From NCBI GenBank assembly GCA_011605725.1, contig JAAOZP010000004.1:160001-224000 (forward strand): 64,000 nt of DNA. Direction: 5' to 3'. Within the stretch, counting starts at the first letter, position 1. Each line of letters opens with the position of its first letter. The DNA is from Nitrososphaerota archaeon (GTDB lineage: Archaea > Thermoproteota > EX4484-205 > JAAOZP01). Positions 35,587-52,296 of this stretch are shown here, one piece after another. Below the pieces are notes generated by a model, which saw nothing but the letters and a program-made list of their open reading frames with translations, was not told where the DNA came from and ran no database searches. The position numbers were made by a program, and so were the translations under genes.

Positions 35587-35662
35587 TTACTCTTCGTCCG
35601 GGTCGGGCAGGTCCCAGTCAGGGTCAAGCTTGACTCGGCCTAGGGGCTTTCTTAAGCATTAT
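35587..35662 (-). pseudogene. ppsA: PEP synthase 3'-end fragment A
   Basis: [24 protein letters not shown]; matches tail of copy E. Confidence 0.75.
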
Positions 35663-35701
35663 GGAAACGCTTAAATTCTCCAAACTGATTGTCAATTAGA
35701 A

Positions 35702-35884
35702 GTGTCAGAGGTGGAGGCTACACTTAGGGAAATTAGGGAGGAGCTGAGGGAGATTAGGCTTCTGTATAAGGAGTTGATCGAGAGGCTCATACCTGTTGAG
35801 GAACCGTTAAGCGATGAGAAAGAGGCTATTGAGAGCAGCGATGAAACAGTAGGTGAGGAAGAACTCTTAAAGGCTCTGGATTAA
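35702..35884 (+). CDS. RelB-like antitoxin
   Basis: Small acidic ORF (LIPVEEPLSDEKEAI) directly upstream of relE. Confidence 0.75.
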   Translation: MSEVEATLREIREELREIRLLYKELIERLIPVEEPLSDEKEAIESSDETVGEEELLKALD

Positions 35885-35885
35885 A

Positions 35886-36149
35886 TTGATTAAAATAGAG
35901 GCTAAAAAGAGAGTATTAAAAACATTAAGAGATTTAGACAGGGATAGGAAAAACAGGATTAAAGAAGCCCTCCTCATCCTAAGCAACGATCCTCTACCTT
36001 TTAAAAAGCTTGATGTTATAAAGCTAAAAGGCTACGAGAACACGTATCGCATCAGGATCGGAGGCTTAAGAATAGTGTATGAGGTAAACTGGGACGAGAA
36101 AAAGATCATCATCCACTTCATAGGGCCCAGGGAGAAAGCCTATAAATAA
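35886..36149 (+). CDS. RelE/ParE toxin
   Basis: DVIKLKGYENTYRIRIGGLRIVY..IGPREKAY. Confidence 0.9.
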   Translation: MIKIEAKKRVLKTLRDLDRDRKNRIKEALLILSNDPLPFKKLDVIKLKGYENTYRIRIGGLRIVYEVNWDEKKIIIHFIGPREKAYK

Positions 36150-36154
36150 AGACT

Positions 36155-36250
36155 CTACTCTTTATCAGGAAGATCTCAGCCATGATCTGTTTTAACTTGG
36201 CCCAGTGCTTCTCCAGTATTATTCTTTGCTCAACGCTTGCAACGAGTTAT
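36155..36250 (-). pseudogene. ppsA: PEP synthase 3'-end fragment B
   Basis: LVASVEQRIILEK..GQVKTDH..DLPDKE*; cut by motif 36252. Confidence 0.75.
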
Positions 36251-36620
36251 GTAGCGCGCGCTTTCGAAGCTTATAAGGCCCTTATTAACTATGTTAGAGA
36301 GAGGCTGCTCCCTCTTCGCTTTTAACCTTCATAAACAGGCTTTTGACAGATAAAAAACGCTTAAAGCGCGCGCTCCTCCTCTTAAAAAACTGCTTCAAGA
36401 AATTCTGAAGCAATTAACAGGATAGAATTTAATTTTAGAATCTGTCGTTATTCAGTTACATTTTAAAATTTTAACTATGAATTATTAAAGCGCCGTTTTT
36501 AAGGCTTTCTTAGCGCGCGCACAGCAGGCTTTGCTCACAATACCCATTTGACACCATAGTTTTCTCTAGGCTTTCGTAAAAAGCTTATAGACCTAAACAT
36601 GTATACTAAACTGAAGCTGG

Positions 36621-38294
36621 ATGAACCATGAGTATTCCGTTCTTGTAGGTGGACAGGCAGGGGATGGAATAAGATTGGCAGGCTACGCTGTAGCAAAGCT
36701 TTTTAACAGACTTGGCTACTGGGTTTTTGCGTACAACGATTATCAGTCGCTAATAAGGGGGGGTCACAACTTCTCCATAATAAGAGCAGCTGAAAAGAGG
36801 ATAGAGGCGCATAAAGAAAGGGTCAACATAATTATAGCTATGAATCAGGACACTGTGGATAAGCATAATTGGAGGTTGGAGAATGAAAAACTGATTATTT
36901 TCGACTCAAACAACGTTAAGGCTGATGGGCTTGGTTTACCTCTAACCGAGATTGTGAAAAACAGGGGCTTGCCCCTAATCGCTAGGAACTCTGTTTCACT
37001 TGGCGCTTTAGCATCAGTGTTAGGTTTAGAATTTTCTTTGATCGAAAACGTGATAAGGAGTTCTTTAAGGAGGAGCATAGATGAGAACATAGCTGTAGCC
37101 AGAGAAGGATACGAGGCCGCCAGTAATCATAAGGGCTACTTCAGGATTCCTGTAGTTCACGGGTCTCAGCCAAAGCTGCTTCTTTCCGGAAACGAAGCTG
37201 TAGGGCTTGGTGCCGTCAGAGCCGGATTAAAACTATACGTGGCTTACCCTATGACGCCATCAACTCCTCTTCTTCACTATTTAGCCAATAATTCTGACGA
37301 ATTTGGACTACGAGCGATTCAACCAGAGAACGAAATCGCCGCCATAGGGATTGCTCAAGGTGCAGCATACGCCGGGATAAGATCAATGGTTGGAACCTCG
37401 GGCGGTGGCTTTTGCCTGATGGTAGAGCATTTAAGCCTAGCCGGCCAAGCCGAAATCCCCATTTTAATAATGATCGGTGAGAGGCCGGGACCGGCGATCG
37501 GGCTTCCCACCTATCACGCGCAGGGAGAGCTCTTGTTCTCGATATTCGCTGGACATGGAGAATTTCCAAGAATAGTTGCTTCCCCAGGCGATCCGGAAGA
37601 GGCATTCTACTTGTCTGCAGAAATGTTAAACTTAGCTTGGAAGTTTCAAGTTCCTGCAATACTGCTCGCAGATTACTGTCTTCTCGAAAGCACTTTCTCA
37701 ACAATTATAGATGAAGAAAAAGTAATTATTGAAAATCCAAAAATGTGGACAGGAGAAGGCGAATACAAGCGTTACTTGCAAACAGGAAATGGTGTTTCGC
37801 CTCTGGCTTTCCCAGGAATGGAGAAAGCGATAGTAAAATCAAACAGCTATGAGCATGACGAATTTGGCATAACGACAGAAGATCCAGAGTTAACTAAGCA
37901 GGGTGCTGAGAAAAGGATTAAAAAAAGCGTAGCAATAGAAAATGAGCTTAAGAAGAAAACGACTGTAAAAACATATGGGAACCCCATGAGTCAAATCGTT
38001 CTTATTACTTGGGGATCGACAAAAGGGGGTGTAGCTGAGATTGCAGAGAAGCATGGCCTTAGTGTTATTCAACCTTTGTATCTGAATCCTCTACCAGTCT
38101 GGGAAATTGAGAAATATCTCTCTAAAGCCGAGAAGACTATTTGCATTGAAGCAAATTCAACTGGTCAATTAGCTAAATGGATGAAATACCATGGCTTTAG
38201 GATTGATGAAACCATTCTAAAATATGATGGAAGACCATTCACTATAGACTACCTTGAGGAGAAAATTAAGAGGGTGATTAGCAATGAGCATTAA
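36621..38294 (+). CDS. 2-oxoacid:ferredoxin oxidoreductase alpha subunit (gamma-alpha fusion)
   Basis: GGQAGDG, YQSLIRGGHN, YPMTPST, ENEIAA, TSGGGF, EHDEFG. Confidence 0.93.
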   Translation: MNHEYSVLVGGQAGDGIRLAGYAVAKLFNRLGYWVFAYNDYQSLIRGGHNFSIIRAAEKRIEAHKERVNIIIAMNQDTVDKHNWRLENEKLIIFDSNNVKADGLGLPLTEIVKNRGLPLIARNSVSLGALASVLGLEFSLIENVIRSSLRRSIDENIAVAREGYEAASNHKGYFRIPVVHGSQPKLLLSGNEAVGLGAVRAGLKLYVAYPMTPSTPLLHYLANNSDEFGLRAIQPENEIAAIGIAQGAAYAGIRSMVGTSGGGFCLMVEHLSLAGQAEIPILIMIGERPGPAIGLPTYHAQGELLFSIFAGHGEFPRIVASPGDPEEAFYLSAEMLNLAWKFQVPAILLADYCLLESTFSTIIDEEKVIIENPKMWTGEGEYKRYLQTGNGVSPLAFPGMEKAIVKSNSYEHDEFGITTEDPELTKQGAEKRIKKSVAIENELKKKTTVKTYGNPMSQIVLITWGSTKGGVAEIAEKHGLSVIQPLYLNPLPVWEIEKYLSKAEKTICIEANSTGQLAKWMKYHGFRIDETILKYDGRPFTIDYLEEKIKRVISNEH

Positions 38295-39156
38295 GCTAGA
38301 GGATTTATCAACCTATGCTAAAAACACATGGTGCCCAGGATGCGGGAATTTTGGTATAGAAAGAGCAGCTAAGCAAGCTTTTATTGAACTCATAAACGAG
38401 GATAAAGTTAAAAGAGAAAAAATAGTAATGGTAACTGGTATAGGCTGCCATGGAAAAATCGCTGATTATATTAATGTAAATTCATTTTACTCTCTTCATG
38501 GAAGAGCTATTGCACCTGCAATTGGAATGAAGCTAGCAAACCCAACTCTGAATATTGTAGTATTCGTGGGAGACGGAGATGCCTTAGGGGAAGGATTGGA
38601 GCATACGGTATTTGCAGCTAAGAAAAATGTCGATATAACCGTAATAGTTCACGATAACAGAGTATATGCATTAACAACAGGCCAGTTTACCCCCACATCT
38701 CCAAAAGGATTCCGAGGAGGTTCGACACCTAAAGGTTCTCCTGAAGAACCATTGAACCCTATCGAACTAATGCTGGTTAGCGGGGCAACTTTTATAGCTA
38801 GAGCCTATAGCGCAAACCTGAACCACACGAAGGAACTCTTTAAGCAAGCAATATTGCATAAAGGTTTTGCGTTTGTAGATGTACTCCAACCATGCTACAC
38901 GTTCTTCGATACTTACAAGTATTATGGACCAAGGGTTTATGATCTTCAACAGGATGGTCATAATCCTTTAGATTGGGAGGCGGCGCTAGCAAGGGCAAAA
39001 GAATGGAATTATGGTGGGGAGGAGGCAAAGAGGATACCTATTGGGCTCTTCTTTAAAGCCGATAAAACTACATATGAGGATGCTGTGCTCTCCGGAAAGG
39101 ACTTGTATGATAAGAGTACACCTAGGATCAATATGGTCCTCCGGAGTCATGTGTAA
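38284..39156 (+). CDS. 2-oxoacid:ferredoxin oxidoreductase beta subunit
   Basis: WCPGCGNF, GIGC, HGRA, GDGD..N (TPP motif), LQPC. Confidence 0.93.
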   Translation: MSIKLEDLSTYAKNTWCPGCGNFGIERAAKQAFIELINEDKVKREKIVMVTGIGCHGKIADYINVNSFYSLHGRAIAPAIGMKLANPTLNIVVFVGDGDALGEGLEHTVFAAKKNVDITVIVHDNRVYALTTGQFTPTSPKGFRGGSTPKGSPEEPLNPIELMLVSGATFIARAYSANLNHTKELFKQAILHKGFAFVDVLQPCYTFFDTYKYYGPRVYDLQQDGHNPLDWEAALARAKEWNYGGEEAKRIPIGLFFKADKTTYEDAVLSGKDLYDKSTPRINMVLRSHV

Positions 39157-39694
39157 ACAAGCCGCTACCAAGTTGCATGAATCTCGGAACATATTGATGA
39201 ACTGGCTGAGAAAAAGAGCCTTCACTCCGGGTAAGCTTATTATGAGGGTAGAGAACAAGAAATAGACTAAAGCTAAATATAAAGGAGGCCGCATTAATTG
39301 ATATGATGGAACACGTGGAGAAGCCTAAAGAGGCGATTAGAATACGTGTGCTAGTTTTAGTAACTGTGATATAAAGTATACTTTTTGACTTAGCACGTGG
39401 TAGTATAACTCTGAATTTCAGTGGCGGCTTAGTTCGTGCAATTTTCATCATGTCTCTAGGCACCGTGTAGAATAAATTGGCAATTTTAGCCCCCTTGACT
39501 GTAGTTAGCAGCCTGACTTTATTGTTTATCGACATATGTACGGATGGCGTCGGCATGGTCCGGTTCAGCGTGATTCACACCACGCGCGCGCTAGTCCATT
39601 CCACTTCTTTTCTTTAGAAAGAAGTCTTCAGTTTGCAAGAAAAATTCGAAAAAACCTTATATTATACGCTATGCTCCCCCTATTTTTCCTCGGG

Positions 39695-40819
39695 ATGAAA
39701 AGAATTCTCATAATCGGTGGAGGCTACTCTGGTACAGAGATAATAAGGCAGCTTGTCCTAAGAGGGGTTAGAGGCATTGAGGTGGAACTCATATCTGTCG
39801 GGCGTTATTTTGAGAACACGATAGCTGGCACAGAAGTTATAAGCGAAAAACTGAGAGCAGAAGACCTCAGGTATGACTTACAGCTGCTCTCAGACTACTG
39901 GGGTTTCAGCCTAACAGCCGGCAGGGTCACTAAGATTAACCTAGACGAGAAGGTCGTTAAGCTAGAGAACGGTGAGAGAGAGTACGATGTTCTTGTAGTT
40001 GCTTCAGGTTCAGTTCCAAACTTTTACGACGTGAAGGGTTTCGACCTAGCGCTCCCTAGCTACCGTCTCTCCGATTTTGAGCAAATAAACAGAAGTTTAA
40101 AAAGATTAAACAATGATCGTCCGAGAGTTATAATAGTTGGAGCCGGGTATGTGGGTTTGGAAGTAGCCGCGGAGATAATGGACTTCTTCAAATCATCAGG
40201 AAGGAAGGCGGAGGTCATTGTTGTCGAGAAGACGGGCCACGTCCTTCCTGGTTTCAACAATGAGGCTGCTAGAAGAATGACTCTTGAAGCCATGAGCTCA
40301 AGGGGCATAGGCTTCAACTTCGGGAAGGGGGTTAAGCGCATAGCTGAGGGGAAAGTGGTGCTGGAGGACGGCAGTGAGCTTCAATCCGACTTGACGATCT
40401 GGTCAGGGGGTGTAAAGGGTTCTGAGCTCGCGTTGAACACTATTGGGGCCAGCCTGCATAATAGTTACATCCATGTTGATGAAAAGCTATTGATCAAGGG
40501 ACGGCTGGACGCCTTCGCGATCGGTGACGCGGCTTACGTAGAGACCGGTGGAAGCGTGGCCCAGAAGATGGCTGGCGAGGCCCTCGAGCAGGCCGTGACG
40601 ACTGCTAGGAACATAATTTCTATAATAGGCGGCCAGAAACCCAGCGTCGAGCATAAGATAAACTACTCTGTCAACTTCCCTAAGGTATTGCTCTCCCTTG
40701 GCGAGGGCAAAGCGCTACTGATCTTCGGCCCGCATTATGCAAGCCTTGGAAGCACTGAGTATTTCTTGAAGAGAAGAATCGACGTTGAGGAAATGATGGG
40801 AAGGTTCCCACGTGCATGA
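39695..40819 (+). CDS. NDH-2/SQR-like FAD-dependent oxidoreductase
   Basis: Likely start MKRILIIGGGYSG at 39695; IIVGAGYVGLEVAAE, FAIGD. Confidence 0.88.
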   Translation: MKRILIIGGGYSGTEIIRQLVLRGVRGIEVELISVGRYFENTIAGTEVISEKLRAEDLRYDLQLLSDYWGFSLTAGRVTKINLDEKVVKLENGEREYDVLVVASGSVPNFYDVKGFDLALPSYRLSDFEQINRSLKRLNNDRPRVIIVGAGYVGLEVAAEIMDFFKSSGRKAEVIVVEKTGHVLPGFNNEAARRMTLEAMSSRGIGFNFGKGVKRIAEGKVVLEDGSELQSDLTIWSGGVKGSELALNTIGASLHNSYIHVDEKLLIKGRLDAFAIGDAAYVETGGSVAQKMAGEALEQAVTTARNIISIIGGQKPSVEHKINYSVNFPKVLLSLGEGKALLIFGPHYASLGSTEYFLKRRIDVEEMMGRFPRA

Positions 40820-40915
40820 TTTTGCCATAGTCAAAAAAATGGTAGGATGAAGTTTCAATTCGACAAACTATGGCACCCTATTGTTGAAACCCCTCAGTAA
40901 TTGCCGATTAGTACG

Positions 40916-40927
40916 TAGCGCGCGCTA
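40916..40927. repeat. Perfect consensus palindrome TAGCGCGCGCTA (also at 42675, 43782; 14-bp version at 44682)
   Basis: Read directly. Confidence 0.95.
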
Positions 40928-41148
40928 AGCAAGGTTCCGAGAATGAGGTAATGAGTCAGTAGGCCGAAGGATTCGAACCCTACTAATTAGAAGCAGTCTT
41001 TTTTATCAAAATCCCTTTCGTTGATCAAAGATTGGGTTGTCATCTTTGTTTGAACTCTCAATATGGATTACAACTAGGCTTAATATGTAGCGTGCGCTAG
41101 TGGAGAAAATATATAAGAAACCTAAAGGAATTACAATATTGACCGAAT

Positions 41149-41649
41149 GTGTTTGATAGGACGCAGTATGTTGTAGAGAAAAAGTTGTTAACAGTGTTAA
41201 CGTTAGGGGAGACCTATGACATCAAGGATGTGAACGGGAACCTGTTGGGCTACATTAAAAGGAACTCAAAATTTTGGTTTGAGGGAATGGACGGATCCCG
41301 CCAAGGTGAAATCCGGGATGTGGGTGGTGCATACGAGGTTTACGATGCTCGAAATCAGCTTCGAGCTACTGTAGTATGGGCTGGGGGACTGGGGCTCCGA
41401 AGTAGTAAGTGGCAGATGAAAGATCCTCAGGGCCAGCAATTGGCCATAGCCGAGGGTGACTTTTTGGGACGTAATTATCGCATCCTAGCGCCAGACGGAA
41501 GCGCCATAGCCCAGATACACAAGAAATGGGCATCCACGAGCTGGCAATCCTATCGCATCGATATTTCACGCCAAGGTTTCGATCCCTTCTTGATCTTGAG
41601 TTACGTTGTAGTCGATATTTCACAACAAGTGACGGTGTACTACCCCTGA
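41149..41649 (+). CDS. LURP-one/scramblase (tubby-C-like) family protein
   Basis: Repeated YDIKDVNGNLLG / YEVYDARNQL / YRILAPDGSAIAQIHKKW, YRIDI. Confidence 0.75.
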   Translation: MFDRTQYVVEKKLLTVLTLGETYDIKDVNGNLLGYIKRNSKFWFEGMDGSRQGEIRDVGGAYEVYDARNQLRATVVWAGGLGLRSSKWQMKDPQGQQLAIAEGDFLGRNYRILAPDGSAIAQIHKKWASTSWQSYRIDISRQGFDPFLILSYVVVDISQQVTVYYP

Positions 41650-41852: not shown

Positions 41853-41960
41853 CTATTCCTTGTCATGGTCAACCTTGACTTGGCCGAGAGCCTTCTCAAG
41901 CATTATGCGTTGCTCAATAGATGCAACAAGCTTACGTGTAAACACCGCAGCGTCAGGATT
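41853..41960 (-). pseudogene. ppsA: PEP synthase 3'-end fragment C
   Basis: [35 protein letters not shown]. Confidence 0.85.
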
Positions 41961-41983
41961 TAAGCGAGAGAACGCGACTGTTG

Positions 41984-42205
41984 TTAATTTAAAAGCTTTA
42001 TGAATTCTTCTTTCGTGATTCCGACTTGAGCCATTATTTTTAATAACGTGGTTGGAGCTATGGTTTCGTGCCGTGGTACTACTGTGAACCGGTGTTCCGG
42101 CCCCTCTAGGATCAGGTGGCTTCCTCTCTGCCTAACCACTTTAAACCCTTTCTTGCTTAATGCCTTAACTACGTCTCTCCAAGAGAGAATTGGAAGCTTA
42201 CTCAA
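41984..42205 (-). CDS. HicA toxin
   Basis: KKGFKVVRQRGSHLIL..TVVPRH...TLLKIM. Confidence 0.92.
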   Translation of the reverse strand: MSKLPILSWRDVVKALSKKGFKVVRQRGSHLILEGPEHRFTVVPRHETIAPTTLLKIMAQVGITKEEFIKLLN

Positions 42206-42428
42206 TTGCTACCTCTACCGTCTTTTTCCCCTTCGCCACTCTTTCCTCCAAATGCTCCAAAGCCAGTTCGATAGCCTCTTTCACGTTTCTTATAGCCTCC
42301 TCCTCAGTTGCACCCTGCGATATCGCCTGAGGAATCTCGAGGCACTGAGCCACGTACAGGCCCGTTTCCTCATCCTTCTCCAGGGCGACGGTAAAGGTCT
42401 TCATGCGAGGAAAAAGGCTGAAAGGCAT
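42198..42428 (-). CDS. HicB antitoxin (short; true start probably MKTF)
   Basis: YVAQCLEIPQAISQGATEEEAIRNVKEAIEL. Confidence 0.9.
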   Translation of the reverse strand: MPFSLFPRMKTFTVALEKDEETGLYVAQCLEIPQAISQGATEEEAIRNVKEAIELALEHLEERVAKGKKTVEVAIE

Positions 42429-42857
42429 TATTAAGCTTTATGATACGTTGCTACTTCAAATACTGCGTCGGAACACTTTACGATGCTTATGCCATGCGCA
42501 TCGGTGGACCAAGCGAGACCGTAGGTCACATGGCGGTTGCACGCGCTCGCTACAATCATTCACCGAGACTAATTATATAAGCGTCAAGGGTCGGGTAGGT
42601 CCCTGCCGGGGTCTGTAGCGCACGCTAACAGCCTACCCGGATAGAAGTGAAGCATTAGAACTCATAATAATCTGTAGCGCGCGCTATCTCTGCCAAGGAG
42701 TATAGCAAGCTGTACAGAAAAATTTAGAAAGCGAATTCTCGTGAGAGCACGCGCTATTTTAAAAAGTCGGTTAATTCAGGAAAAATATACCACCGGCATT
42801 ATTCTGAAACTGCTTAATTCAAACTGTTTTATTTTTATCTTATCTCCAGCACGCTAC

Positions 42858-43325
42858 CTACCTGCTTATCATCACTACTTCATTCTTCAAGTCGGTGAAA
42901 TGCTTGTCTCCCGTAACTACCTTAGCATTTGCTCTTCGTGCTGTTGCCAATATTATCGAATCAGCTAAACCCCAATTGCTCACTTTGTTCTTTCTCTCGA
43001 CATCTATCTCGCCTGAGAGCTCCGCAATATCGCGCGACAGGTCTATGATCTCCGTAATGGTTCCAATGAACTCTAGCTTTGCCCTCCTGCCTTCAACCGT
43101 TTCCACTCCCCTTTCAATTTCCTTAAGCAGTTTTCTGCTCAGCTCTGCGATTACTACTGACGGGGTTGCTGAATCCTCCTCCTCGATATAGTGCTTCGCC
43201 GCCTCCCCTGGCTTCGAGCCTCTGAAGTACTCTATCCAAGCATATGCGTCAATCACATACTCATAGCTCATGAAATTCTGCTTCCTCCTCTTCCTTAAAC
43301 CGGGAAAGCTTAGGGTTCGAACCAA
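42858..43325 (-). CDS. VapC/PIN toxin (true start probably MSYEY, about 43271)
   Basis: VIDAYAWIEY, VIAEL, GLADSIILATA, VTGDKHF. Confidence 0.9.
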   Translation of the reverse strand: MVRTLSFPGLRKRRKQNFMSYEYVIDAYAWIEYFRGSKPGEAAKHYIEEEDSATPSVVIAELSRKLLKEIERGVETVEGRRAKLEFIGTITEIIDLSRDIAELSGEIDVERKNKVSNWGLADSIILATARRANAKVVTGDKHFTDLKNEVVMISR

Positions 43326-43461
43326 ACATAGAAGCAGGGATTTCCATCTTTTCAGCTAAGAGCTTTTGCAGGACTTCATCGTAGCTTTTCGCAAACAGCT
43401 TCTTCTTTAAAGCATCTAGGAGTTGCCTGGTTCTTCTACTGACTTGAATAGTAGTAGTCAT
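43261..43461 (-). CDS. VapB-type antitoxin
   Basis: MTTTIQVSRRT...SYDEVLQKLL. Confidence 0.85.
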   Translation of the reverse strand: MTTTIQVSRRTRQLLDALKKKLFAKSYDEVLQKLLAEKMEIPASMFGSNPKLSRFKEEEEAEFHEL

Positions 43462-43468
43462 AATTATA

Positions 43469-43482
43469 GTTATAGCTATAAC
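43469..43482. promoter_or_regulatory. Palindromic operator upstream of vapBC
   Basis: Perfect palindrome GTTATAGCTATAAC between the TATA-like element and start codon. Confidence 0.55.
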
Positions 43483-43883
43483 CCATACTTATATTTTTCT
43501 CTCCTGGGACTGGTGCAGAACCTGTCAAAAGCACCACAAACCATCTATGTATGGTTTAGCTCAGCCTTTCTTCTATAACAAGGCAGGGATTTGACACGAG
43601 TTTGTTTTCCGATCATTATCCGCTTAAACGAAGGCGTTTGATTGGAAGTAGGCTGAGCGTCTAAAAAGCAGCCCCCAAGATTCCGACTACTATTGCGACT
43701 ACACCGATTAGTGCTGAAACCCTCTTAGTCATTGACAAGCCTCGTTAAATCCTTCCCTATAAGGGGGTACGCTGGGTAAAATAGCGCGCGCTATACTATC
43801 TTGGGAAGCCCCACCCTTTAACGAACCTTTTTATTAGCTTAGGAGTTATGTTTTTAAGTCTCTGAAGAAATCAGTAATGCGAG

Positions 43884-44074
43884 ATGGGGAGAGCGACTCT
43901 GGAGCAGGTTTACCGTGAGATCCGGCTTCTTAGGGGGATTTGAACCGTTTGGAGAAGATGCTTATCCCCGAGGCAGAGCCTGAGGAAGATGAGGTAAGGG
44001 CAGTAAGAAGGGGCAGGAAAGAATTCCGGGAAAAGCGATGTGTCGAATGGAGCAAAATCAGGAAAAAGATTTAA
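43884..44074 (+). pseudogene. RelB-like antitoxin, frameshifted in a G-run
   Basis: MGRATLEQVYREIRLLRG / DLNRLEKMLIPEAEPEEDEVRAV. Confidence 0.7.
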
Positions 44075-44075
44075 C

Positions 44076-44338
44076 TTGGCTTTTAAAATCGTCTTAACGC
44101 ATCAAGCACTCAAAAGCTTCGAAAAGCTCCCCCTAAAGGTAAAAAACGCGTTTCAGAGGCCTTAGACGCTCTGGTTCAAACACCGGTTCCGTTCAGAAGC
44201 TTCGACGTTAACAAACTTAAAGGCTTTAGAAACACCTATAGAATAAGGATAGGCGACTGGAGAATAATCTATGAATATGATTCGAAAGCAAGAGTAATAA
44301 TCGTCCATGACATACTGACAAGGAAGAAAGCATACTGA
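44076..44338 (+). pseudogene. RelE toxin, frameshifted in an A-run
   Basis: FKIVLTHQALK / FDVNKLKGFRNTYRIRIGDWRIIY..RKKAY*. Confidence 0.82.
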
Positions 44339-44579
44339 TTTTCAATATTTCAAGCAGTGGATTCTTCAGTCTACCCTGAGTAAGAGTATCTCTTGGCTAT
44401 GACCTGCTTTCCTTTCCATATCTTTAGCTGTATGACATGTTCAGGTGTTACAAAGAATCAGCCCTTGGCTAATTATTGCTAGGCTAAGTACAGGTAAGTC
44501 AGACAATTCCTATGAGAAAAGAATTTAAAGGCTAGGACCCTATTTAGGGTAACGAGCTGCTATGTCGATTCCGCGCGCT

Positions 44580-44683
44580 AAAATATACGAAGTAAAAGCA
44601 AGAAGCGTAATGCATAAAACCAAAATTCTTGGTGCGGATTGGGGTATAAACTATTATCGTGGTTGTACCCATGGGTGCATTTA
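44580..44683 (+). pseudogene. About 100-bp N-terminal fragment of SplB-like radical SAM gene
   Basis: KIYEVKARSVMHKTKILGADWGINYYRGCTHGCI; cut inside CxxxCxxC; motif copy on each side. Confidence 0.75.
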
Positions 44684-44781
44684 GCGCGCGCGCTATCCTT
44701 CAGCAGGCGAAGGGCAATTTCACTTAACGTCCTGCGTATAAAAGAAGTTGCCGAAGGCAATTTGGGCGAAGCGCGCGTTAC

Positions 44782-44928
44782 CTAGTCAAGGGCTTTCTCA
44801 AGCATAATCCTTTGCTCAATAGATGCAATCAGCTTACGTGTAAACACTGCAACATCAGGATTGATTGAGACTGAGTCGATGCTGTATCTAACTAGGAACT
44901 CGTTAAACTCCCGATGGATATTTGGGGG
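44782..44928 (-). pseudogene. ppsA: PEP synthase 3'-end fragment D
   Basis: [47 protein letters not shown]. Confidence 0.85.
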
Positions 44929-45049
44929 CTACTTAAACAGCTCTAGGAAGTCCTCCTTAAGCAATTCTGATTTTGAATTCATAGCTGCTTCTACCCTCCA
45001 GCGCCCTTACTATCTTCGGGATAAGCATCTTCCACCTCTCGCCATTCAT
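44929..45049 (-). pseudogene. Internally deleted paralog of the 354-aa ORF at 52297-53361
   Basis: MNGERWKMLIPKIVRALEGRSSYEF aligns without gaps to MDAERRELLANRLAKELSERYGCEF; ends ELLKEDFLELFK* vs EFLKEDFPELFK*. Confidence 0.7.
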
Positions 45050-45162
45050 TGTGAAACGGGAAACTTAGCTCGGAAGAGGCGCAGAGCGGGCTCTATGAAA
45101 TGGGTGAAGAATCAAGGTGCGAAGAGCCGATAAAGTTTATATAGTAAGAAAAAGGTTACACA

Positions 45163-45378
45163 TTGAAGATGGAGTTTACAGTAATCATAGAGAGGGATGA
45201 AGACGGTTATTATGTGGCAGAGGTCCCTGATCTAAAAGGTTGCTACACTCAGGGAAAGACATTGGAAGAAGTTATGAGGAACATTAGAGAAGTTATAGAA
45301 CTTTGTTTAGAAGCTGAAAAAGGAAAAGAGTTTCCAAAGAAAGAACTAATAGGAGTTCAAAAGATAGAGATCGAGTAA
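45163..45378 (+). CDS. HicB antitoxin
   Basis: ERDEDGYYVAEVPDLKGCYTQGKTLEE. Confidence 0.92.
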   Translation: MKMEFTVIIERDEDGYYVAEVPDLKGCYTQGKTLEEVMRNIREVIELCLEAEKGKEFPKKELIGVQKIEIE

Positions 45379-45410
45379 AATACTGTCTTCATCAAGCGGG
45401 GGAATCTTTT

Positions 45411-45650
45411 ATGAGGCTTGTTCCGGTTTCCGGCGAAGAATTAGTGAAAATCCTCTATAAGAAAGGTTTCATAATAAAAAGGAGGAAGGGAAGCCATGTT
45501 CAACTGGAGGATGCTGAAGGAAGAAGAGTAACAGTGCCAATACACCCGGGAAGAGTTATTGGAAGAGGGCTGTTGAGAAAAATATTGAGAGACGCAGAGA
45601 TATCTATAGAAGAATATGAAAGGCTTAGACAAGGAAATACTGTGACTTAA
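45411..45650 (+). CDS. HicA toxin
   Basis: RRKGSHVQL..RVTVPIH...GLLRKILRDA. Confidence 0.92.
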   Translation: MRLVPVSGEELVKILYKKGFIIKRRKGSHVQLEDAEGRRVTVPIHPGRVIGRGLLRKILRDAEISIEEYERLRQGNTVT

Positions 45651-45707
45651 GGAGTAGAAGAGCTTATTCGATCTTCCGAGGTAGCCTAACCTTTATAGCG
45701 CGCGCTT

Positions 45708-45829
45708 CTATACGGGTATTCTCTATGTCTGAGTATGATGTGGCTACCAGTCTGATGGTCCACTTCATAGCCGATCTTGGACAGGGCCTTTACAACTTCT
45801 AGGCCGGAAACAACGGGAAGCTTAGACAT
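45708..45829 (-). pseudogene. HicA toxin truncated by the palindromic motif
   Basis: MSKLPVVSGLEVVKALSKIGYEVDHQTGSHIILRHREYPYR, then motif 45696-45707. Confidence 0.85.
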
Positions 45830-46055
45830 GAATCTCCACAAGCTCTTCCTCTATCGATGGAGGTATCGGCTCACCGTGTTTCTTCAGGCTTTCCAAGTAG
45901 CCTCGAATAGCATCCTTTATGTTTTCAATGGCTTCTTCCCTAGTCTTCCCCTGAGAAATACAGCCAGGCAACTCGGGAACCTGGGCCACGTAGAAACCAT
46001 CTTCATCCCGCTCCAGCAGTACTCTAAACTTCATGGAATAAGGTCTAGGGAACAA
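45822..46055 (-). CDS. HicB antitoxin
   Basis: ERDEDGFYVAQVPELPGCISQGKTREEA. Confidence 0.92.
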   Translation of the reverse strand: MFPRPYSMKFRVLLERDEDGFYVAQVPELPGCISQGKTREEAIENIKDAIRGYLESLKKHGEPIPPSIEEELVEIHV

Positions 46056-46223
46056 AATATTTAAGCATTACCAAAAAGACCTCCGGCGCGTGCTGGAGGA
46101 TGCAGTACCCGATGACAGTAGGCCGGAAAACTAAGAGTAATAAAATTTGGTAATCTCAATGCTAAAAAAGCATTTGACGGGGTAAAACTTATATTTTTGG
46201 GTTAAAAATTGAAAAATGGGTAA

Positions 46224-46472
46224 ATGGCAATAGTAAGGGTTGATGAAAGGGGGCGGATGACTATCCCGAGGGAAATGGGTATTAGAGATACAAGAGCAGT
46301 AGTGATACCTGCAGGAAACTTCTTCATCACAATACCGCTTCCAAAAGCACCTCGGGAAGAGGCTGAAGGATGGATGGCTACTGTAAAGGACAGGAGGCAG
46401 TTGAAGAAGCTGGCTGAGAGCGCTGCCAAGAGAGATGCTGTAAAACGTGTAAAAAGGAGGGGGCAACTTTGA
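46224..46472 (+). CDS. AbrB/MazE-type antitoxin
   Basis: VRVDERGRMTIPREMG. Confidence 0.85.
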   Translation: MAIVRVDERGRMTIPREMGIRDTRAVVIPAGNFFITIPLPKAPREEAEGWMATVKDRRQLKKLAESAAKRDAVKRVKRRGQL

Positions 46473-46885
46473 TGGTGGAAACCGATATACTTTACGCCTA
46501 TGTGAAGAAAGAAGACTGGTTAAAGAAAGTTGCTAGAAGCCTAATATTGAAAATTGAAAAAGGCGAGTTCGAAAAGGTATATGCATCGAGGGAGGCTCTC
46601 CATGAAATGTATTATGTGTCTAGAGAGGAAGGAGTCTCAGTAGACGAGTATATTTCCAGAGTGGTAGCACTAACCAATATAAAGAACTTAGTATTCTTAG
46701 AGACAACACATGAAATCGACCTTCTAGCGTTAACTCTGATGAAGCAATACGGCTTAGAATCGATTTTCGACGCTTACTATGCTGCAACTGCATTAAACCA
46801 GGTTCCAGACCACTCGATAATATCTACTGACACTGTTTTCGACAGGATACCTGGAATAACGAGAATCGATCCGCGTGAAATATAG
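46469..46885 (+). CDS. VapC/PIN toxin
   Basis: VETDILYA, ALHE, SIFDAYYAATA, IISTD..FDRI. Confidence 0.88.
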   Translation: MMVETDILYAYVKKEDWLKKVARSLILKIEKGEFEKVYASREALHEMYYVSREEGVSVDEYISRVVALTNIKNLVFLETTHEIDLLALTLMKQYGLESIFDAYYAATALNQVPDHSIISTDTVFDRIPGITRIDPREI

Positions 46886-46940
46886 GGTGCAAGTGTGCAT
46901 GTGGAATTTTTCACTCCTTTTTAATTTTCTTTTAAAGAGG

Positions 46941-47095
46941 CTAGACCCTCGTCTTCCTTGACTTTAATTCGAGTATGCTGTTGAGCCAATCAAGATAATC
47001 TGGGTTTCCCATGGTTATTGGGACAACTATTATCTCAGGAATATCGTATGGATGATTATCTTTAATAGTCTTCTCAAGCTCGTTGTAAAGGCTTT
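46941..47095 (-). pseudogene. cutA: CutA divalent-cation tolerance protein, C-terminal fragment
   Basis: KSLYNELEKTIKDNHPYDIPEIIVVPITMGNPDYLDWL; cut at motif 47096. Confidence 0.85.
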
Positions 47096-47176
47096 TAGCG
47101 TGCGCACAACTCTAACAACAGACGATAAAGGAGAGATAGATGTATATCTCTCTAACTATGGTTCTAGCGCGCGCGA

Positions 47177-47371
47177 CTAATTGGAGATTTTCGTAAGAAA
47201 GGGCTTTACACTTGCATAGCTAGAGACATAAGAGATCCGGAAAACACTAGGCTGATTCAGGAGATAATTAAAATCCAGCACAATGTAAGGTCTAACTTGA
47301 AGAAATATAGCCTAGGCTTGATAAGGATAATACATGAGCATGTGTTAATCTGGAGGAAGGAGTCTGTTTAA
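47177..47371 (+). pseudogene. C-terminal fragment of an N4/N6-type DNA methyltransferase-like protein
   Basis: LIGDFRKKG...EIIKIQHN...IIHEHVLIWRK; starts at motif 47165. Confidence 0.6.
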
Positions 47372-47380
47372 GATCAGGCT

Positions 47381-47902
47381 TTAAACTATTTTCTTGGCAG
47401 CTTCTATAGCCCTCTCCCTCTGCTTTCTACTAACGTAAAGGCCTTGACTTATGCAAGCGTCTAGAATTCGAACGTACTCGTCGACTGATTTTAAGTAGTT
47501 GCTTCTCAGCGCATCGTGAAGAATTTCCGTAAACCATCTTGTCTTCACACCCAGCTTCTTCGCGACTTCAATAGCCTGCTTATCGTTAGCAAGGAATATT
47601 TCTCCCAGCTCCTTTGCTAAGGCTATAGAGTAGGCTTCTCCAAGACCTAGGCCTCCCTCAATAAGGCTTTCCACAAGCTCGATTGAATGCTTTTCCTTAG
47701 GGTCTTGAAGAATAATCCATTCTTTTCTGGCTTGGGAGATTAGAGAGAAATCTTCATCGCTGAGAAAACCCCGTTTATAAAGGTGAACGATGTCCTGCCA
47801 AACTGGTGAGCAAACCCTTACCGATCCATAAACATTCTTAAGAAGATCCAGCCTTCTTATTTTCGCAAGGTAGATTATAGGGCTTGTGTTGGAAAGCGTC
47901 AA
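47381..47902 (-). CDS. DUF3368-type PIN domain protein
   Basis: SNTSPIIYLAKI..LDLLK, LGLGEAYSIALA, FLAND..A. Confidence 0.85.
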   Translation of the reverse strand: MTLSNTSPIIYLAKIRRLDLLKNVYGSVRVCSPVWQDIVHLYKRGFLSDEDFSLISQARKEWIILQDPKEKHSIELVESLIEGGLGLGEAYSIALAKELGEIFLANDKQAIEVAKKLGVKTRWFTEILHDALRSNYLKSVDEYVRILDACISQGLYVSRKQRERAIEAAKKIV

Positions 47903-47909
47903 ACCTTAT

Positions 47910-48155
47910 CTAATCATCTGGTCCCCTTACTGGGATCCTTGCCCTAGCCCTTATGTAGTCAAACTCTGTAACTGGTAAGCCGGCTATTTCAGCAGCCCTG
48001 CCTATGGATACTCTACCTTCCATGTAGAGCTCTAAGCCCAGTTTAATCCTGTTCGGAAGCGAGTTAACGTAATCCCAGTCTATGGGCACAAGTAAATCAT
48101 CCTCGGTAAACCAGTACTTCTTTGTCTTTAACGCCTCCTGAGACATGCAGTTCAA
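47910..48155 (-). CDS. UPF0175 family antitoxin-like protein
   Basis: LELYMEGRVSIGRAAEIAGLPVTEF. Confidence 0.85.
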   Translation of the reverse strand: MNCMSQEALKTKKYWFTEDDLLVPIDWDYVNSLPNRIKLGLELYMEGRVSIGRAAEIAGLPVTEFDYIRARARIPVRGPDD

Positions 48156-48255: not shown

Positions 48256-48540
48256 GTGAAATACTGGGTCTGCACAACATGCGGAAGATTAACTCCAGCC
48301 GTATCAGGATTCTGCACTTACTGTAAAGCTCCTTTGCCTAGCTTCATGAATTCTCCAGATCAAAACAATAACGGAATATTCCTAGGCTTTAATCAAGATA
48401 ATAAGTTTTTCCTACCGTTAGAATTCCTCCCTTACCATTTTGCTTTCTACGGCGTTACGGGAAGCGGGAAGACGAGGCTTGCCATGAAATTAGCGATAGA
48501 GGCTGAGAAAGTTGGCTTAAAGCTTCTCATACTTGATTAA
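48256..48540 (+). pseudogene. Zn-ribbon plus N-terminus of a HerA/VirB4-like ATPase, truncated
   Basis: CTTCG..FCTYC; HFAFYGVTGSGKT...LLILD then stop. Confidence 0.7.
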
Positions 48541-49465
48541 AGCTTTACATTATGAGTACAGTGGAGAGGTTCAACCATACATTTGGTGCCCTGAGACTGA
48601 AGCCATGTGGAAGGAGATAAAATGTGGAGGAGGTTGGCCTTCTGGAGGAAATGAAGGAGATTGGTGCAAAGTCTGGTGGCTAGATTGGACAGGCTGGAAA
48701 TGGAGGCAAGGAGTTTGGGATCCTGATCAAGGCTATTGCATAATAACAAGCGGGCAAGCTCCTAATAATGGTTGTACTGATGATAGAAGGGAAAGCACAG
48801 CTAGCGGAATAGCTGACCTTTGTCCAGGAAATACAGCAGGAGATGGAAAGTGTGAGCAAGCATGCGGAGCAGATGCAAGCTGTGATGAAAAAGATACTGG
48901 CGATACATGCGGAACAAACGGAAGATGTGCAAGCTATTGCTTGTGCTGCGAAGGAAGCGATAGCGATGGAGGTAAAGTCTACACAGTGAAAGGAACCACT
49001 TCTGGATATTATCAAGGGAGTTGCCAGAGCTTCAATGATACTTGCGTCTGGGAGCTTGGAAAACTATACTTGCAAGAATACTTCATTTCTGACAGGAGGA
49101 TAAATTCTGAACTTTATGACTGCAGCCAGAGGACTGATGGGTCGATAAGATGCATAGATGGAAAATGTGGTTGCATGTACGATTCAGACTGTCCTTCTAT
49201 AGCAGGAAGAAAAGGAACATGTGTGAATAATATTTGTCAATGGGGTCCTTGCAAAGAAAATTCTGATTGCGATCCTGGATATTGTTGTGAAGCAAAGGTT
49301 GGTTCTATCACTATCAACCCGCCATACGGCTGTGTTTCTCAAGGAACGATAAAAGATAATAAGTACCTATGTGACCCTCCTGAATGGAATGGTGCTTCAA
49401 AACAAACTATTTTTGGTTTGTTATTCTCCTATTTCAAGATTTTAATCCAAAAAATTATGGGTTAA
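48533..49465 (+). CDS. Cys-rich extracellular-type protein, probably N-terminally truncated
   Basis: Very high Cys content; DSDGGKVYTVKG; C..DSDC repeats; no signal peptide visible. Confidence 0.65.
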   Translation: MIKALHYEYSGEVQPYIWCPETEAMWKEIKCGGGWPSGGNEGDWCKVWWLDWTGWKWRQGVWDPDQGYCIITSGQAPNNGCTDDRRESTASGIADLCPGNTAGDGKCEQACGADASCDEKDTGDTCGTNGRCASYCLCCEGSDSDGGKVYTVKGTTSGYYQGSCQSFNDTCVWELGKLYLQEYFISDRRINSELYDCSQRTDGSIRCIDGKCGCMYDSDCPSIAGRKGTCVNNICQWGPCKENSDCDPGYCCEAKVGSITINPPYGCVSQGTIKDNKYLCDPPEWNGASKQTIFGLLFSYFKILIQKIMG

Positions 49466-51077
49466 TCCTTTCCCATTTCCCATCAGGCCTTGTAAGTTGA
49501 AGCTCTAATGCATACTTTCCTTCTACATGGTCTTTTATCAAAGGCTCAGCATACTGCCACCATCCAAACATGTAAGGCAAAGTTGTTTTTCCGTACTGAG
49601 AAATTTTTTCATGAAGCTGAGGAGAAATTATCACGTAAGGCTCGCTATGATAACCACCACTGTTTGGGTATTTATCAGTTAAAACAAGAGCAGCCCTTCC
49701 GAAAACTCTAGCAATTAGCACAGAATAGTATGGGCAAGTTTGTCCTTCCATAGGAACTACTGCTTCAAGTCGCCATGGAATAAACCCTCTTGATAGTGCC
49801 CTTGGATAACCTTGGATGAAAACAGCAACTTCATCCTCTTTCATTAAACCATCAAAAGAAACAATTATATGATCCTTTTCTACCGTATTGCCAAAAAGTT
49901 TTTTATAAGCTGCATCTGAATTTGGCCACTCACCATAAGCAGGATGCCCTCTAACCACTTCATCTATCGCAAGCAAATACCTAAGAGTTTTCTCCCTGAA
50001 ATCTTTTTTACTCATTTCATCCAGCCATTGCTGTGGAGTCTTTCCATCAATACTTGAGTCTGGCGACACATTCCTCCAACCTATTTCCAGGCTAGGTGTT
50101 ATTTTACCGTTAATGATGTTGTGCCACCCGCTTACAATATCAATCTCAAATAGATCTATAGGAAGAAGCCTTTGCCTCCTGTACCATGCTTCTATTTTTC
50201 CATCAGGTATATTCAAATCATACTCAGCTTCTCCACTATCAAGCTTATCCACAACATATTTTACAGCCTTTTCCACAACGCTCCAAAACTTTGCTTCATC
50301 TTGAGAAGCCATTCCAGTTCCATAGCCAACATCATCAACTTGTATAGCTCCTTCCCTCCATTCCTTCGGATATTTCAAAATATTCTCAACATGCTTCGCT
50401 AGCCTTAACATGTTAGCATGCTTTCTTGCATTATCAAAATCCTTGTTAACCCCATCGTTTTCACCAAGCTTCCTCACGCTTGCTGAAAGAGAATCATTTC
50501 CAATCTCATTTATCAGCTTAGAATAACTTCCAAAGTAAGAAGTAGCATTGTTCAAAGCATATATCTGCGAAAACTTTTGAACTTCTCTGCCAAGATTCTG
50601 GTAAATCTTCAAAGCCTCTAAGAACAATTCATTTCTGTCTAAATTTATCCTAGGGTCTCTCTGAAACTGGTCATAAACGATTTTAACTAGGCTTGAGTTA
50701 GCAGAGTAAGCTGGTAAAACTTCTTCATAATTCTTAGCAAACTGGGAAAAATCTTTAAGAAAGTTCAAACCATCATACTCATTACTATTAGCGAAATAAA
50801 GGTAATCCAAGCTATCTTTCAGATTGCCAAAAGTTTTCAAGCTCTCTTCAGCCAAAGCTCTATCATTAGCCCAAGACTTAGCAAAGCTTACCCAAGTAGA
50901 ATTACCATTCTGCTTAGGATATTTAGCTATGAACTCTTCAGCCTGCTCATCGCTAAGACCAGCATCCCTGTAGGGTCTTCTAGCCTGCTCACCCAGATAA
51001 TGGTTGTAGAGGAAAACCCCAGTGGCACCGGCAGTAAACAGGATGAGAACGATGCCTATTTCAAGCATCCTCCGCAA
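49455..51077 (-). CDS. Hypothetical membrane-anchored protein
   Basis: N-terminal TM followed by a 500-aa soluble region. Confidence 0.65.
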   Translation of the reverse strand: MRRMLEIGIVLILFTAGATGVFLYNHYLGEQARRPYRDAGLSDEQAEEFIAKYPKQNGNSTWVSFAKSWANDRALAEESLKTFGNLKDSLDYLYFANSNEYDGLNFLKDFSQFAKNYEEVLPAYSANSSLVKIVYDQFQRDPRINLDRNELFLEALKIYQNLGREVQKFSQIYALNNATSYFGSYSKLINEIGNDSLSASVRKLGENDGVNKDFDNARKHANMLRLAKHVENILKYPKEWREGAIQVDDVGYGTGMASQDEAKFWSVVEKAVKYVVDKLDSGEAEYDLNIPDGKIEAWYRRQRLLPIDLFEIDIVSGWHNIINGKITPSLEIGWRNVSPDSSIDGKTPQQWLDEMSKKDFREKTLRYLLAIDEVVRGHPAYGEWPNSDAAYKKLFGNTVEKDHIIVSFDGLMKEDEVAVFIQGYPRALSRGFIPWRLEAVVPMEGQTCPYYSVLIARVFGRAALVLTDKYPNSGGYHSEPYVIISPQLHEKISQYGKTTLPYMFGWWQYAEPLIKDHVEGKYALELQLTRPDGKWERINP

Positions 51078-51173
51078 CTCTAACAGGAATAGTCTTCACT
51101 CAGGCTTATTAGCTTTAACAGTAAGAGCCGGGGAAAATTAAATAGAATTGAGAAAAGCGGGTTTTGAAAAAAA

Positions 51174-51361
51174 TTACTCTTCGTCTGGATCGGGCAGGTC
51201 CCAGTCGGGGTCAGTTTTGACTTGACCTAAAGCTTTCTCAAGCATGATGCGTTGTTCAATTGATGCAACCAGCTTGCGTGTGAATACCGCGGCATCAGGA
51301 TTGATTGAGACAGAGTCGATTCCAGCTCTGACAAGGAACTCTGTAAACTCAGGATATATTA
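51174..51361 (-). pseudogene. ppsA: PEP synthase 3'-end fragment E
   Basis: [61 protein letters not shown]. Confidence 0.9.
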
Positions 51362-51478
51362 GGATGCTTATTTTAACATTTGAGGAGTCTTCACCAGGAA
51401 TTCCAAGATGCATGTTTCCTACTTGGGAAAAGGTTAAAATTAAGAATTCCGTGTCTTGATTGAAGAGGCTCGGTTAGG

Positions 51479-51790
51479 ATGAGGAGAAATTTGAAAAGAG
51501 TCGAGGAAATGAAGGACAAGTTAGAGAGGTTGAAGCCCGTGTTAAGGGAAAGGTTTAGGGTGAAGACTATTGGGGTTTTCGGCTCCTATATTAGGGGGGA
51601 GGAGAGGGAGGATAGTGACCTTGATATTCTAGTCGAGTTTGAGGAAGATGCTGAATTAAGCCTCCTAGATTTCATTGGCTTAGAGAATTATTTAAGTGAA
51701 GAATTAGGCGTCAAAGTGGACTTGGTGGAGAAAAACACGCTTAAACCCAGAATTGGAAAGCACATACTGGAGGAAGTAGAATACTTATGA
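51479..51790 (+). CDS. MNT (minimal nucleotidyltransferase) antitoxin
   Basis: VFGSYIRGE..DSDLDILVEF, KVDLV. Confidence 0.92.
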   Translation: MRRNLKRVEEMKDKLERLKPVLRERFRVKTIGVFGSYIRGEEREDSDLDILVEFEEDAELSLLDFIGLENYLSEELGVKVDLVEKNTLKPRIGKHILEEVEYL

Positions 51791-52128
51791 AAAGAGAATT
51801 TCTAGATTATGTTGACGATATAATTGGAGCTATGAATGATGCTATGGGCTTCGTGGAAGGAATGAGTTATGACGAGTTTGCAAGGGATAAGAAGACTATC
51901 TACGCGGTTGTGAGAGCAGTAGAAATCATTGGAGAGGCTGTTAAAAAGATACCGGATTCTATTAAAAAGAAATACCCTGAAATACCTTGGCGGGAAATGG
52001 CTGGGATGAGGGATAAATTAATCCATGAATACTTCGGCGTCAATTTGCAAAGGGTCTGGAGAACAGTCAGAGAAGACATGCCTGCCTTAAAACCTTTATT
52101 TGAGAAAATATTGAAAGATTTAGAGTAA
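51787..52128 (+). CDS. HEPN (DUF86/HepT) RNase toxin
   Basis: EIIGEAVK, IPWREMAGMRDKLIHEYFGV (RxxxxH). Confidence 0.93.
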   Translation: MKREFLDYVDDIIGAMNDAMGFVEGMSYDEFARDKKTIYAVVRAVEIIGEAVKKIPDSIKKKYPEIPWREMAGMRDKLIHEYFGVNLQRVWRTVREDMPALKPLFEKILKDLE

Positions 52129-52134
52129 GAAGTT

Positions 52135-52296
52135 CTATTCGTCAGAGTTGCTCATAAGGGCTTTCTCAAGCATTATGCGTTGCTCAATAGAAGTAACAAG
52201 CTTTCTAGTGAACACCGCAGCATCAGGATTAATAGACACGGAGTCGATGCCTGCTCTAACAAGGAACTCAGTGAACTCAGAGTAAACACTTGGGAG
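52135..52296 (-). pseudogene. ppsA: PEP synthase 3'-end fragment F
   Basis: [52 protein letters not shown]. Confidence 0.9.

Follow-up and report, generated by a model that had tools for sequence, protein, structure and literature searches.

Displaced 3' ends of ppsA as probable marks of a genus-wide flexible island without a recognisable integrase in Candidatus Brockarchaeota

Background

Why should a stretch of archaeal chromosome that lacks an intact ppsA, the gene for phosphoenolpyruvate synthase, carry the 3' end of that gene six times over? The question is raised by 64,000 nucleotides (nt) of DNA, hereafter the window, from positions 160,001–224,000 of contig JAAOZP010000004.1 (C4) in the genome of an uncultured hot-spring archaeon of Candidatus Brockarchaeota, a metagenome-assembled genome (MAG) of 20 contigs (G000). 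An earlier reading of the window from its letters alone (the original prediction) had reported six ppsA 3' fragments alternating with toxin-antitoxin (TA) operons, and had proposed that repeated acquisition of a ppsA 3' end together with its downstream cargo builds an integron-like TA array. We find it somewhat probable, at roughly 55%, that the fragments are displaced ppsA 3' ends and mark a flexible island found across the genus, which has no recognisable integrase and in which the displaced ends, here called tails, serve as portable homology arms.

Results and discussion

Six tails in the window and one intact gene outside it

All six fragments are present where they had been reported, on the minus strand, and translation of that strand gives clear PpsA C-terminal peptides at each site, including the start peptides PSVY, PNIH, IYPE, NPD and IML, which had been quoted correctly. 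In tblastn searches with the copy at 51174 as query, the fragments other than the 36155 copy gave E values of 1e-48 to 6e-8, while the 36155 copy was matched more weakly, in two pieces (E 1e-3). The fragments share 72–90% nucleotide identity with the intact ppsA of the same genome and 80–96% amino-acid identity with the last 22–64 residues of PpsA, and their derivation from PpsA is thus established by their match to the C-terminal end of a bona fide intact gene.

Tail 5 (51174–51368) is complete, running from codon ~740 (to ~802) through the stop, and some 70 nt further downstream (51104–51173) are also homologous to the region that follows intact ppsA. Tail 6 (52135–52296; codons 740–785 plus a short divergent end) is the window copy nearest to the host gene, at 89.5% over 124 nt. 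The remaining four are shorter or more decayed: tail 1 (35587–35663; codons ~779–802 and stop) is truncated on its 5' side; tail 2 (36155–36253) has a frameshift and one internal stop, and its 5' end meets a recurrent GC palindrome, TAGCGCGCGCTA (core GCGCGCGC), at 36254; tail 3 (41853–41963; codons 760–793) ends in the short variant VDHDKE* and its 5' end meets a hicA stop; and tail 4 (44782–44928; codons 740–785) has 9 of 46 residues changed, with a GC palindrome just beyond its 3' cut. There is in addition a 47-nt ppsA scrap on the minus strand (~16290–16336; codons ~757–772), with an alignment score of 42 against a shuffle maximum of 25. A candidate eighth scrap on the plus strand (27518–27577), flanked by two GC palindromes, was rejected at the nucleotide level (score 20, below the shuffle maximum of 25).

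The window contains neither an intact ppsA nor an integrase, as had been noted. Intact ppsA lies on the plus strand at C4:36021–38429 (802 amino acids (aa); PF02896, E 7e-73; PF01326, E 2e-128), and the genome-wide tblastn search that had been proposed as a check recovered this one full gene and three further tails on C4 outside the window, at 59700 (plus strand), 69809 (minus) and 70841 (minus). A co-oriented tail is thus found 21 kb downstream of the intact gene. The window array is on the same contig, 122 kb from intact ppsA and on the opposite strand, so that it cannot be regarded as an array adjoining ppsA. Nor can a single large inversion joining it to ppsA, given the tail coordinates, gather all of the minus-strand tails.

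Tails across the genus

We searched 16 relatives from the genus (17 genomes with G000) using the last 68 residues of PpsA as query. Matches were found in all 16, with two or more in 15 of them and 1–15 per genome when the intact gene is counted, giving approximately 70 tails over the 16 relatives; within contigs these are nearly always co-oriented. One relative (G009) has four co-oriented tails behind ppsA within 12.5 kb and another (G005) has a single tail in the same orientation 0.7 kb downstream of the gene, while in four genomes the contig stops 0.5–2.2 kb past ppsA. The regions downstream of ppsA in relatives are therefore variable and bear stacked co-oriented tails, rather than being conserved and free of extra tails. 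In G000 an intact ppsA has been kept, with the target 3' end repeated 21 kb downstream; locus L032 holds a full unit between two tails, and G009 has an array.

Since contigs often end 0.5–2.2 kb past ppsA or inside the operon genes described below, and G000 is itself a MAG in 20 contigs, the repeated tails might be suspected of being chimeric joins introduced by assembly or binning. We consider this highly improbable, as copies that are 72–90% identical are too diverged for misassembly and the same architecture is seen in 16 independent MAGs as well as in raw metagenome contigs from several samples.

Two side observations concern individual tail ends and their neighbours. In L020 (G016:C21) a GC palindrome stands 8 nt past the stop of intact ppsA, and beyond it is the end of a short, old tail (VKVDPDKE*), of the same short end variant as tail 3 in the window. 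A hicBA pair found at 45163–45650 of the window and at L019:11510–11978 in G009 (~88% amino-acid identity by eye, not computed) adjoins in both genomes a tail and a remnant of ORF354, the gene considered next, and is therefore part of an array common to different species.

A common junction and the repeat unit

Approximately 50 tails were aligned on codon 739. Most start at that codon, directly behind the stop of a lineage-specific open reading frame (ORF) that in the window encodes 354 aa (ORF354; 52297–53361, minus strand), and most have a C-terminal remnant of ORF354 at their left, even where it is badly decayed. In the window the TAG stop of ORF354 stands in place of Gln738 of ppsA and tail 6 follows in frame; a paralogue at C4:71036 is only 35% identical yet has the same ending, a stop and then a tail. 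The junction is also present in G014, G002, G007 and several metagenome contigs, and in at least nine genomes overall. Separate start classes at codons 747 and 758 were considered and rejected, as the former largely reflects a 9-nt slippage deletion between two GAGTTY repeats and the latter largely frameshifts of the codon-739 class. True exceptions are tails that begin at a hicA stop (codons ~742–744 or 760) or at a GC palindrome (codon 739 or 759), and longer ppsA fragments that reach codon ~730. Tail starts are thus a few inherited junction types with secondary truncation, with no random spread, and the variable starts that had been read as evidence for illegitimate recombination are weak grounds for that reading, since most tails start at codon 739 behind ORF354 or its remnant.

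ORF354 is the last gene of a four-gene operon, which in order from the tail encodes a membrane protein of 540–624 aa, a membrane-anchored protein of ~400 aa, a giant protein of ~1,700 aa and the ORF354 product. L032 contains the unit in complete form, 11.4 kb long and with a tail at either end. In the window, ORF540 (49455–51077, minus strand) is the membrane protein gene that directly follows tail 5 on its downstream side; over the first 180 aa of its product it shares 50% identity with the 624-aa gene behind a tail in L032, and it has paralogues at contig ends. An ORF354-family remnant (44929–45050, minus strand) has an internal deletion that leaves ~28 N-terminal and ~13 C-terminal codons, its stop meets tail 4, and its segment 44966–45050 is 93% identical to C4:72053–72137. 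The stretch from tail 5 to tail 4 is therefore a decayed unit, in which ORF540 and this remnant survive. ORF316 (53362–54312, minus strand) is a C-terminal remnant of the giant protein, which always lies upstream of ORF354 (its counterpart in the near-identical strain contig L064 has 640 aa), and together with ORF354 and tail 6 forms the end of another unit. A repeat unit of ppsA tail plus downstream cargo, as originally proposed, is accordingly supported.

In metagenome strain L065 the allele of tail 1 (97.5% identity) makes up the 3' portion of a full tail that adjoins ORF354. Since the 5' portion of that tail differs from tail 6, there is no support for the idea that a 16.5-kb insertion divided a single tail into tails 6 and 1.

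The pair of ~400-aa and giant genes is present in 6–8 copies per genome, several contigs end inside it, and copies of the operon without any tail exist. The copies in G000 are at C10:59.6–62.6 kb, C15:20.5–23.4 kb, C19:1–12.7 kb, C8:1–1.8 kb, C4:112–117 kb and C1:31.5–35 kb. In a sister lineage, seen in L067, the 400-aa, giant and ORF381 genes come after an intact ppsA, and no tail closes the series; judged from gene order, this looks like the ancestral state from which the unit of tail and operon first closed.

Tails evolved in functional genes of other lineages

Over codons 749–790 the tails differ from the host ppsA by a nonsynonymous divergence (dN) of 0.03–0.15 and a synonymous divergence (dS) of 0.5 to saturation (at least 1 in most), with dN/dS of approximately 0.05, and both divergences take the same values when intact ppsA genes of other species are compared with that of the host. 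The nearest neighbours of the tails are mostly in other genomes and the tail tree is star-like. A dN/dS of ~0.05 with saturated dS implies that the tails derive from foreign functional ppsA alleles, from different donors. Stop codons are now present in 22 of 68 tails, which are therefore dead, and gaps in 10 of 68. Each tail thus evolved within a working ppsA and was displaced rather recently, and duplication in place followed by drift is excluded as their source.

These figures also bear on whether the tails could be passive passengers, fused once, long ago and illegitimately, to the sequence 3' of the giant operon and spread since then only by operon duplication within genomes. The ORF354–tail junction common to most tails and the 6–8 copies of the operon family per genome are what such a history would give. 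However, pseudogenes carried in this way should drift towards a dN/dS near 1, rather than show ~0.05 with saturated dS; other left neighbours occur (hicA, palindromes, ppsA fragments to codon ~730); arrays lie directly downstream of intact ppsA; and several operon copies have no tail. We therefore disfavour this explanation and consider it unlikely.

Exchange through the tails and the search for a recombinase

Support for exchange based on homology comes from ppsA itself, which in its 3' half is a recombination mosaic. In five species pairs, codon identity at positions encoding the same residue falls from 0.71–0.84 in codons 1–360 to 0.48–0.68 in codons 361–802, with a sharp drop after codon ~360–440 (Fisher p 6.9e-6 to 1.4e-12). 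A crossover can also be placed inside a tail by comparing G008 with G002, which share a 3.7-kb left flank at 99.1% identity and a 740-nt right flank at 96.1%. The flanks meet at a single tail in G008, G002 has them on separate tails, and the two matches overlap by 112 nt inside the G008 tail. This 112-nt overlap belongs to the one recombinant mapped; truncations cluster near codons 779–786, or at ~775–786 with breakpoints included, and independent events are few. Near-identical strains also differ in the tail behind ORF354 and in the sequence upstream of that gene: one contig joins the ORF354 unit of the window to sequence from the island beside ppsA, and another has the same ORF354 (97%) but a different tail. 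The ppsA mosaic, the crossover within a tail and these strain differences together favour recombination through the tails by host machinery. Of the homology-anchored illegitimate recombination envisaged in the original prediction, the appeal to homology is supported, and the variable starts from which the illegitimate component had been drawn are poor evidence for it.

No dedicated enzyme of a recognised family was found beside the tails. Across the 17 genomes the tyrosine recombinase family PF00589 has no match near a tail, the proposed check for a linked recombinase being negative for this family, and seven genomes have no PF00589 match at all, among them G007 and G009 with 14 and 13 tail matches. 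The sole match in G000 (C17:8672–9895) is on a different contig from the tails; a search of that genome for Y1 transposases and serine recombinases found neither, and for TnpB only one scrap. As a general observation, G000 is very poor in known mobility enzymes, with one tyrosine recombinase and one TnpB scrap. An island-encoded tyrosine or serine integrase beside an att site was likewise not seen, recognised families only being covered. Terminal repeats indicative of circular contigs were absent from all 41 metagenome loci.

The operon proteins were considered as possible hidden recombinases. ORF354 has a small family (32 matches among 1.84 billion representative proteins) with no relatives found in IMG/VR viral contigs. 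Its AlphaFold model is confident (pLDDT 88), with an N-terminal 220-aa fold like that of type III secretion system (T3SS) chaperones and YbjN, and the only structure matches are to T3SS-chaperone/YbjN-like and MotA double-wing folds (Z 5.5–7); Foldseek and VIA searches of the model gave no recombinase fold, and it was rejected as an integrase. A signal sequence and a C-terminal membrane anchor led to rejection of the ~400-aa protein as a recombinase. Searches of Pfam, NCBIfam, PHROGs and PDB sequences gave no match for the giant and ~400-aa proteins, and those of Pfam, NCBIfam and PHROGs none for ORF540/624, ORF316 or ORF151.

It is against this background that a further explanation has to be weighed, in which the units are true integrative elements, site-specific for the ppsA 3' end, with the boundary of ORF354 stop and tail as attP and a recombinase that is of an unrecognised family or acts in trans. 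The codon-739 junction is sharp and gene-restoring, and recurs in at least nine genomes and several metagenomes; the tails form co-oriented tandem arrays; the operon is multi-copy, with contig breaks within it; breakpoints and truncations cluster at codons ~775–786; and for several proteins of the operon no fold or family is known. Yet there is no tyrosine or serine recombinase near any tail in the 17 genomes; ORF354, at the place expected of an integrase, has a chaperone-like fold, and the ~400-aa protein carries a signal sequence and a membrane anchor. ORF354 remnants precede most codon-739 junctions, which can thus be explained by one founding junction rather than by many cuts; operon copies exist without a tail; and IMG/VR viral contigs hold no relative. 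On balance we think this explanation rather unlikely.

Cargo and GC palindromes

As cargo the window holds six complete and three decayed TA modules and genes for KorAB, Ndh and a LURP-one-related (LOR) protein. Two TA operons of relBE/parDE type (35088–36149, plus strand) converge on tails 1 and 2, the relE-like gene, which is frameshifted, ending at 35573, 13 nt from the tail 1 stop at 35587, and parE at 36149, 5 nt from the tail 2 stop at 36155. An MNT-HEPN (HepT) pair (51479–52128, plus strand) converges on tail 6, with 6 nt between the HEPN stop at 52128 and the tail stop at 52135. The three convergent operons and their distances of 13, 5 and 6 nt agree with what had been described from the sequence, and the TA families are confirmed. 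The other TA cargo (41984–48155) comprises hicAB, vapBC, hicBA, a truncated hicAB, vapBC and PIN/UPF0175, in modules separated by GC palindromes. Description of the locus as an integron-like TA array was nevertheless overstated: no intI lies beside the array, TA operons are a minority of the cargo, and four tails folded as single-stranded DNA showed no attC-like hairpin (z -1.24, -1.17, +0.04 and -0.10 against shuffles). The core cargo is the four-gene envelope operon, and the TA genes are secondary to it.

The metabolic cargo lies between tails 2 and 3 (36621–41649, plus strand) and includes a KorAB-type 2-oxoacid:ferredoxin oxidoreductase, an Ndh (NADH dehydrogenase)-like flavoprotein and the LOR protein. 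KorAB and Ndh were named by reading ORF translations, with no family search on them, and the LOR match (E 7e-4) is under the Pfam cut-off. KorAB DNA is present in 6 of the 16 relatives and Ndh DNA in 5 of 16, at 68–73% nucleotide identity. The two are on opposite strands in relatives and on the same strand in the window, where the Ndh segment lies between GC palindromes at 39584 and 40918. The 3' end of the Ndh-like gene, with 65 nt downstream of it, is duplicated (26747–26948 and 40681–40884, 88% identity), and gene-tail duplication is therefore not limited to ppsA. Elsewhere in the window (48256–49465), an N-terminal fragment of a HerA/DUF87 protein (94 aa) runs into a 310-aa cysteine-rich ORF without a family match. 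Outside it, the 21 kb between intact ppsA and the first co-oriented tail (L005/L006; C4:38.4–59.7 kb) form a defence island with a type I restriction-modification system (HsdR/M/S), an OLD-TOPRIM ATPase (OLD-family nuclease), a NERD nuclease and three adjacent ORFs without a family match.

The GC palindrome occurs at 25 sites in the window (4530–62396), compared to ~0.4 expected by a composition estimate, an excess of approximately 60-fold. On C4 it clusters only in two tail-bearing islands, at 30–70 kb and 170–210 kb, and its copies separate cargo modules and coincide with several of the points at which tails are truncated. The tail at C4:69735 has flanks that are colinear but for an inserted 9-nt GC patch between them.

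A flexible island with portable homology arms

On the reading that we prefer, in which displaced ppsA ends mark a flexible island, the unit would be a ppsA tail, from codon 739 to the stop, together with its downstream cargo, the founding cargo being the four-gene envelope operon. The tail of ~190 bp would act as a homology arm, through which a unit could enter either as a circle inserted by a single crossover or through a double crossover that involves two tails; after each such event ppsA would remain intact and one more tail would be left behind, without a dedicated integrase taking part. The data show the tails, their origin in foreign functional genes, the conserved junction, the reassortment of flanks through a tail and the lack of known recombinases; the host homologous recombination system as the source of the enzymes, and the circle or double-crossover route, are inferred from them. 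Units would later decay, and TA, defence and metabolic genes would be pasted in, often at GC-palindrome joints, while paralogous operons would rearrange the array, which may be why the window copy is inverted and 122 kb from ppsA.

Several observations weigh against this reading. The common junction of ORF354 stop and codon 739 is sharp, like an att boundary, and the operon families are multi-copy and break assemblies as mobile elements do. Recombination between tails that are just 75–90% identical needs a permissive host system. The crossover window (codons ~744–781) includes the most conserved nucleotides of the tail, and a site-specific core may lie there; a cryptic site-specific enzyme with its core in the conserved 11-residue stretch of the tail is possible. 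No domain can be recognised in the giant protein or in three others encoded by the operon, and one of these could be an unrecognised recombinase. All of the genomes are MAGs, so that long-range order is uncertain.

If the reading holds, it shows how a large island of defence, envelope and TA genes can be built and exchanged in an archaeal lineage from which recognisable integrases and transposases are almost absent. The ppsA tail would provide a simple sequence marker for such islands and explain assembly breaks in Brockarchaeota MAGs, and the system is a natural setting in which to test whether homology from a duplicated flank is enough by itself to mobilise cargo. It also ties to the ppsA hotspot a novel operon of four genes, whose products include a giant protein and a chaperone-like partner. 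A wider proposal, which is doubtful and which we put forward tentatively, is that Brockarchaeota use the duplicated ends of one housekeeping gene as portable homology arms, such that the DNA between two ppsA tails would be a cassette moved between species by host recombination and loaded with genes by end-joining that leaves GC-palindrome scars, an integrase-free archaeal counterpart of the integron.

Comparison with known systems

Our literature search for ppsA as an integration or recombination hotspot in archaea found no paper describing it, and the locus is best placed by its likeness to systems described elsewhere. Flexible 'replacement' islands, such as O-antigen and capsule loci, are exchanged by homologous recombination in conserved flanking genes, and classical replacement leaves no duplicated flank. 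The ppsA island resembles them in that its flanking gene becomes more divergent at synonymous sites as the island is approached and in that envelope and defence content differs between close relatives; it differs in that each event leaves a tail, so that flank homology becomes part of the cargo. In the orphan module arrays of Rhs and CdiA loci, new 3' ends recombine onto a conserved gene body while old ones pile up downstream and are silent, a process driven by the variable toxin that the 3' end encodes. The ppsA tail arrays resemble these in recombination logic, although the PpsA tail is conserved at the protein level and is merely a handle. Like integrons, the ppsA array has ordered, co-oriented modules split by a recurring sequence, and TA modules are frequent in it, a feature also of chromosomal superintegrons, but it has no intI, attI or folded attC, and its units are multi-gene and up to 21 kb long.

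The closest known systems are the tandem islands at tRNA, tmRNA or other gene 3' ends (Islander/TIGER) and the tycheposons of Prochlorococcus, in which the target is made whole again by the DNA that enters, while its displaced 3' fragment is left at the end of the island as a marker, and in which repeated insertion pushes older elements outward and leaves decayed remnants and partial target copies scattered (PMC4383910; bioRxiv 10.1101/2020.12.28.424599). The ppsA case likewise regenerates its target and scatters partial copies of it. However, tandem islands and tycheposons use a tyrosine integrase and a short att core in an RNA gene, whereas here the target is protein-coding, the repeat is ~190 bp, no integrase was found in or near the arrays and one crossover was mapped within the repeat. 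The ppsA system combines traits of these tandem islands with traits of the replacement islands and Rhs/CdiA arrays: its target is protein-coding, its 190-bp repeat moves together with the cargo, and it has no recognisable integrase.

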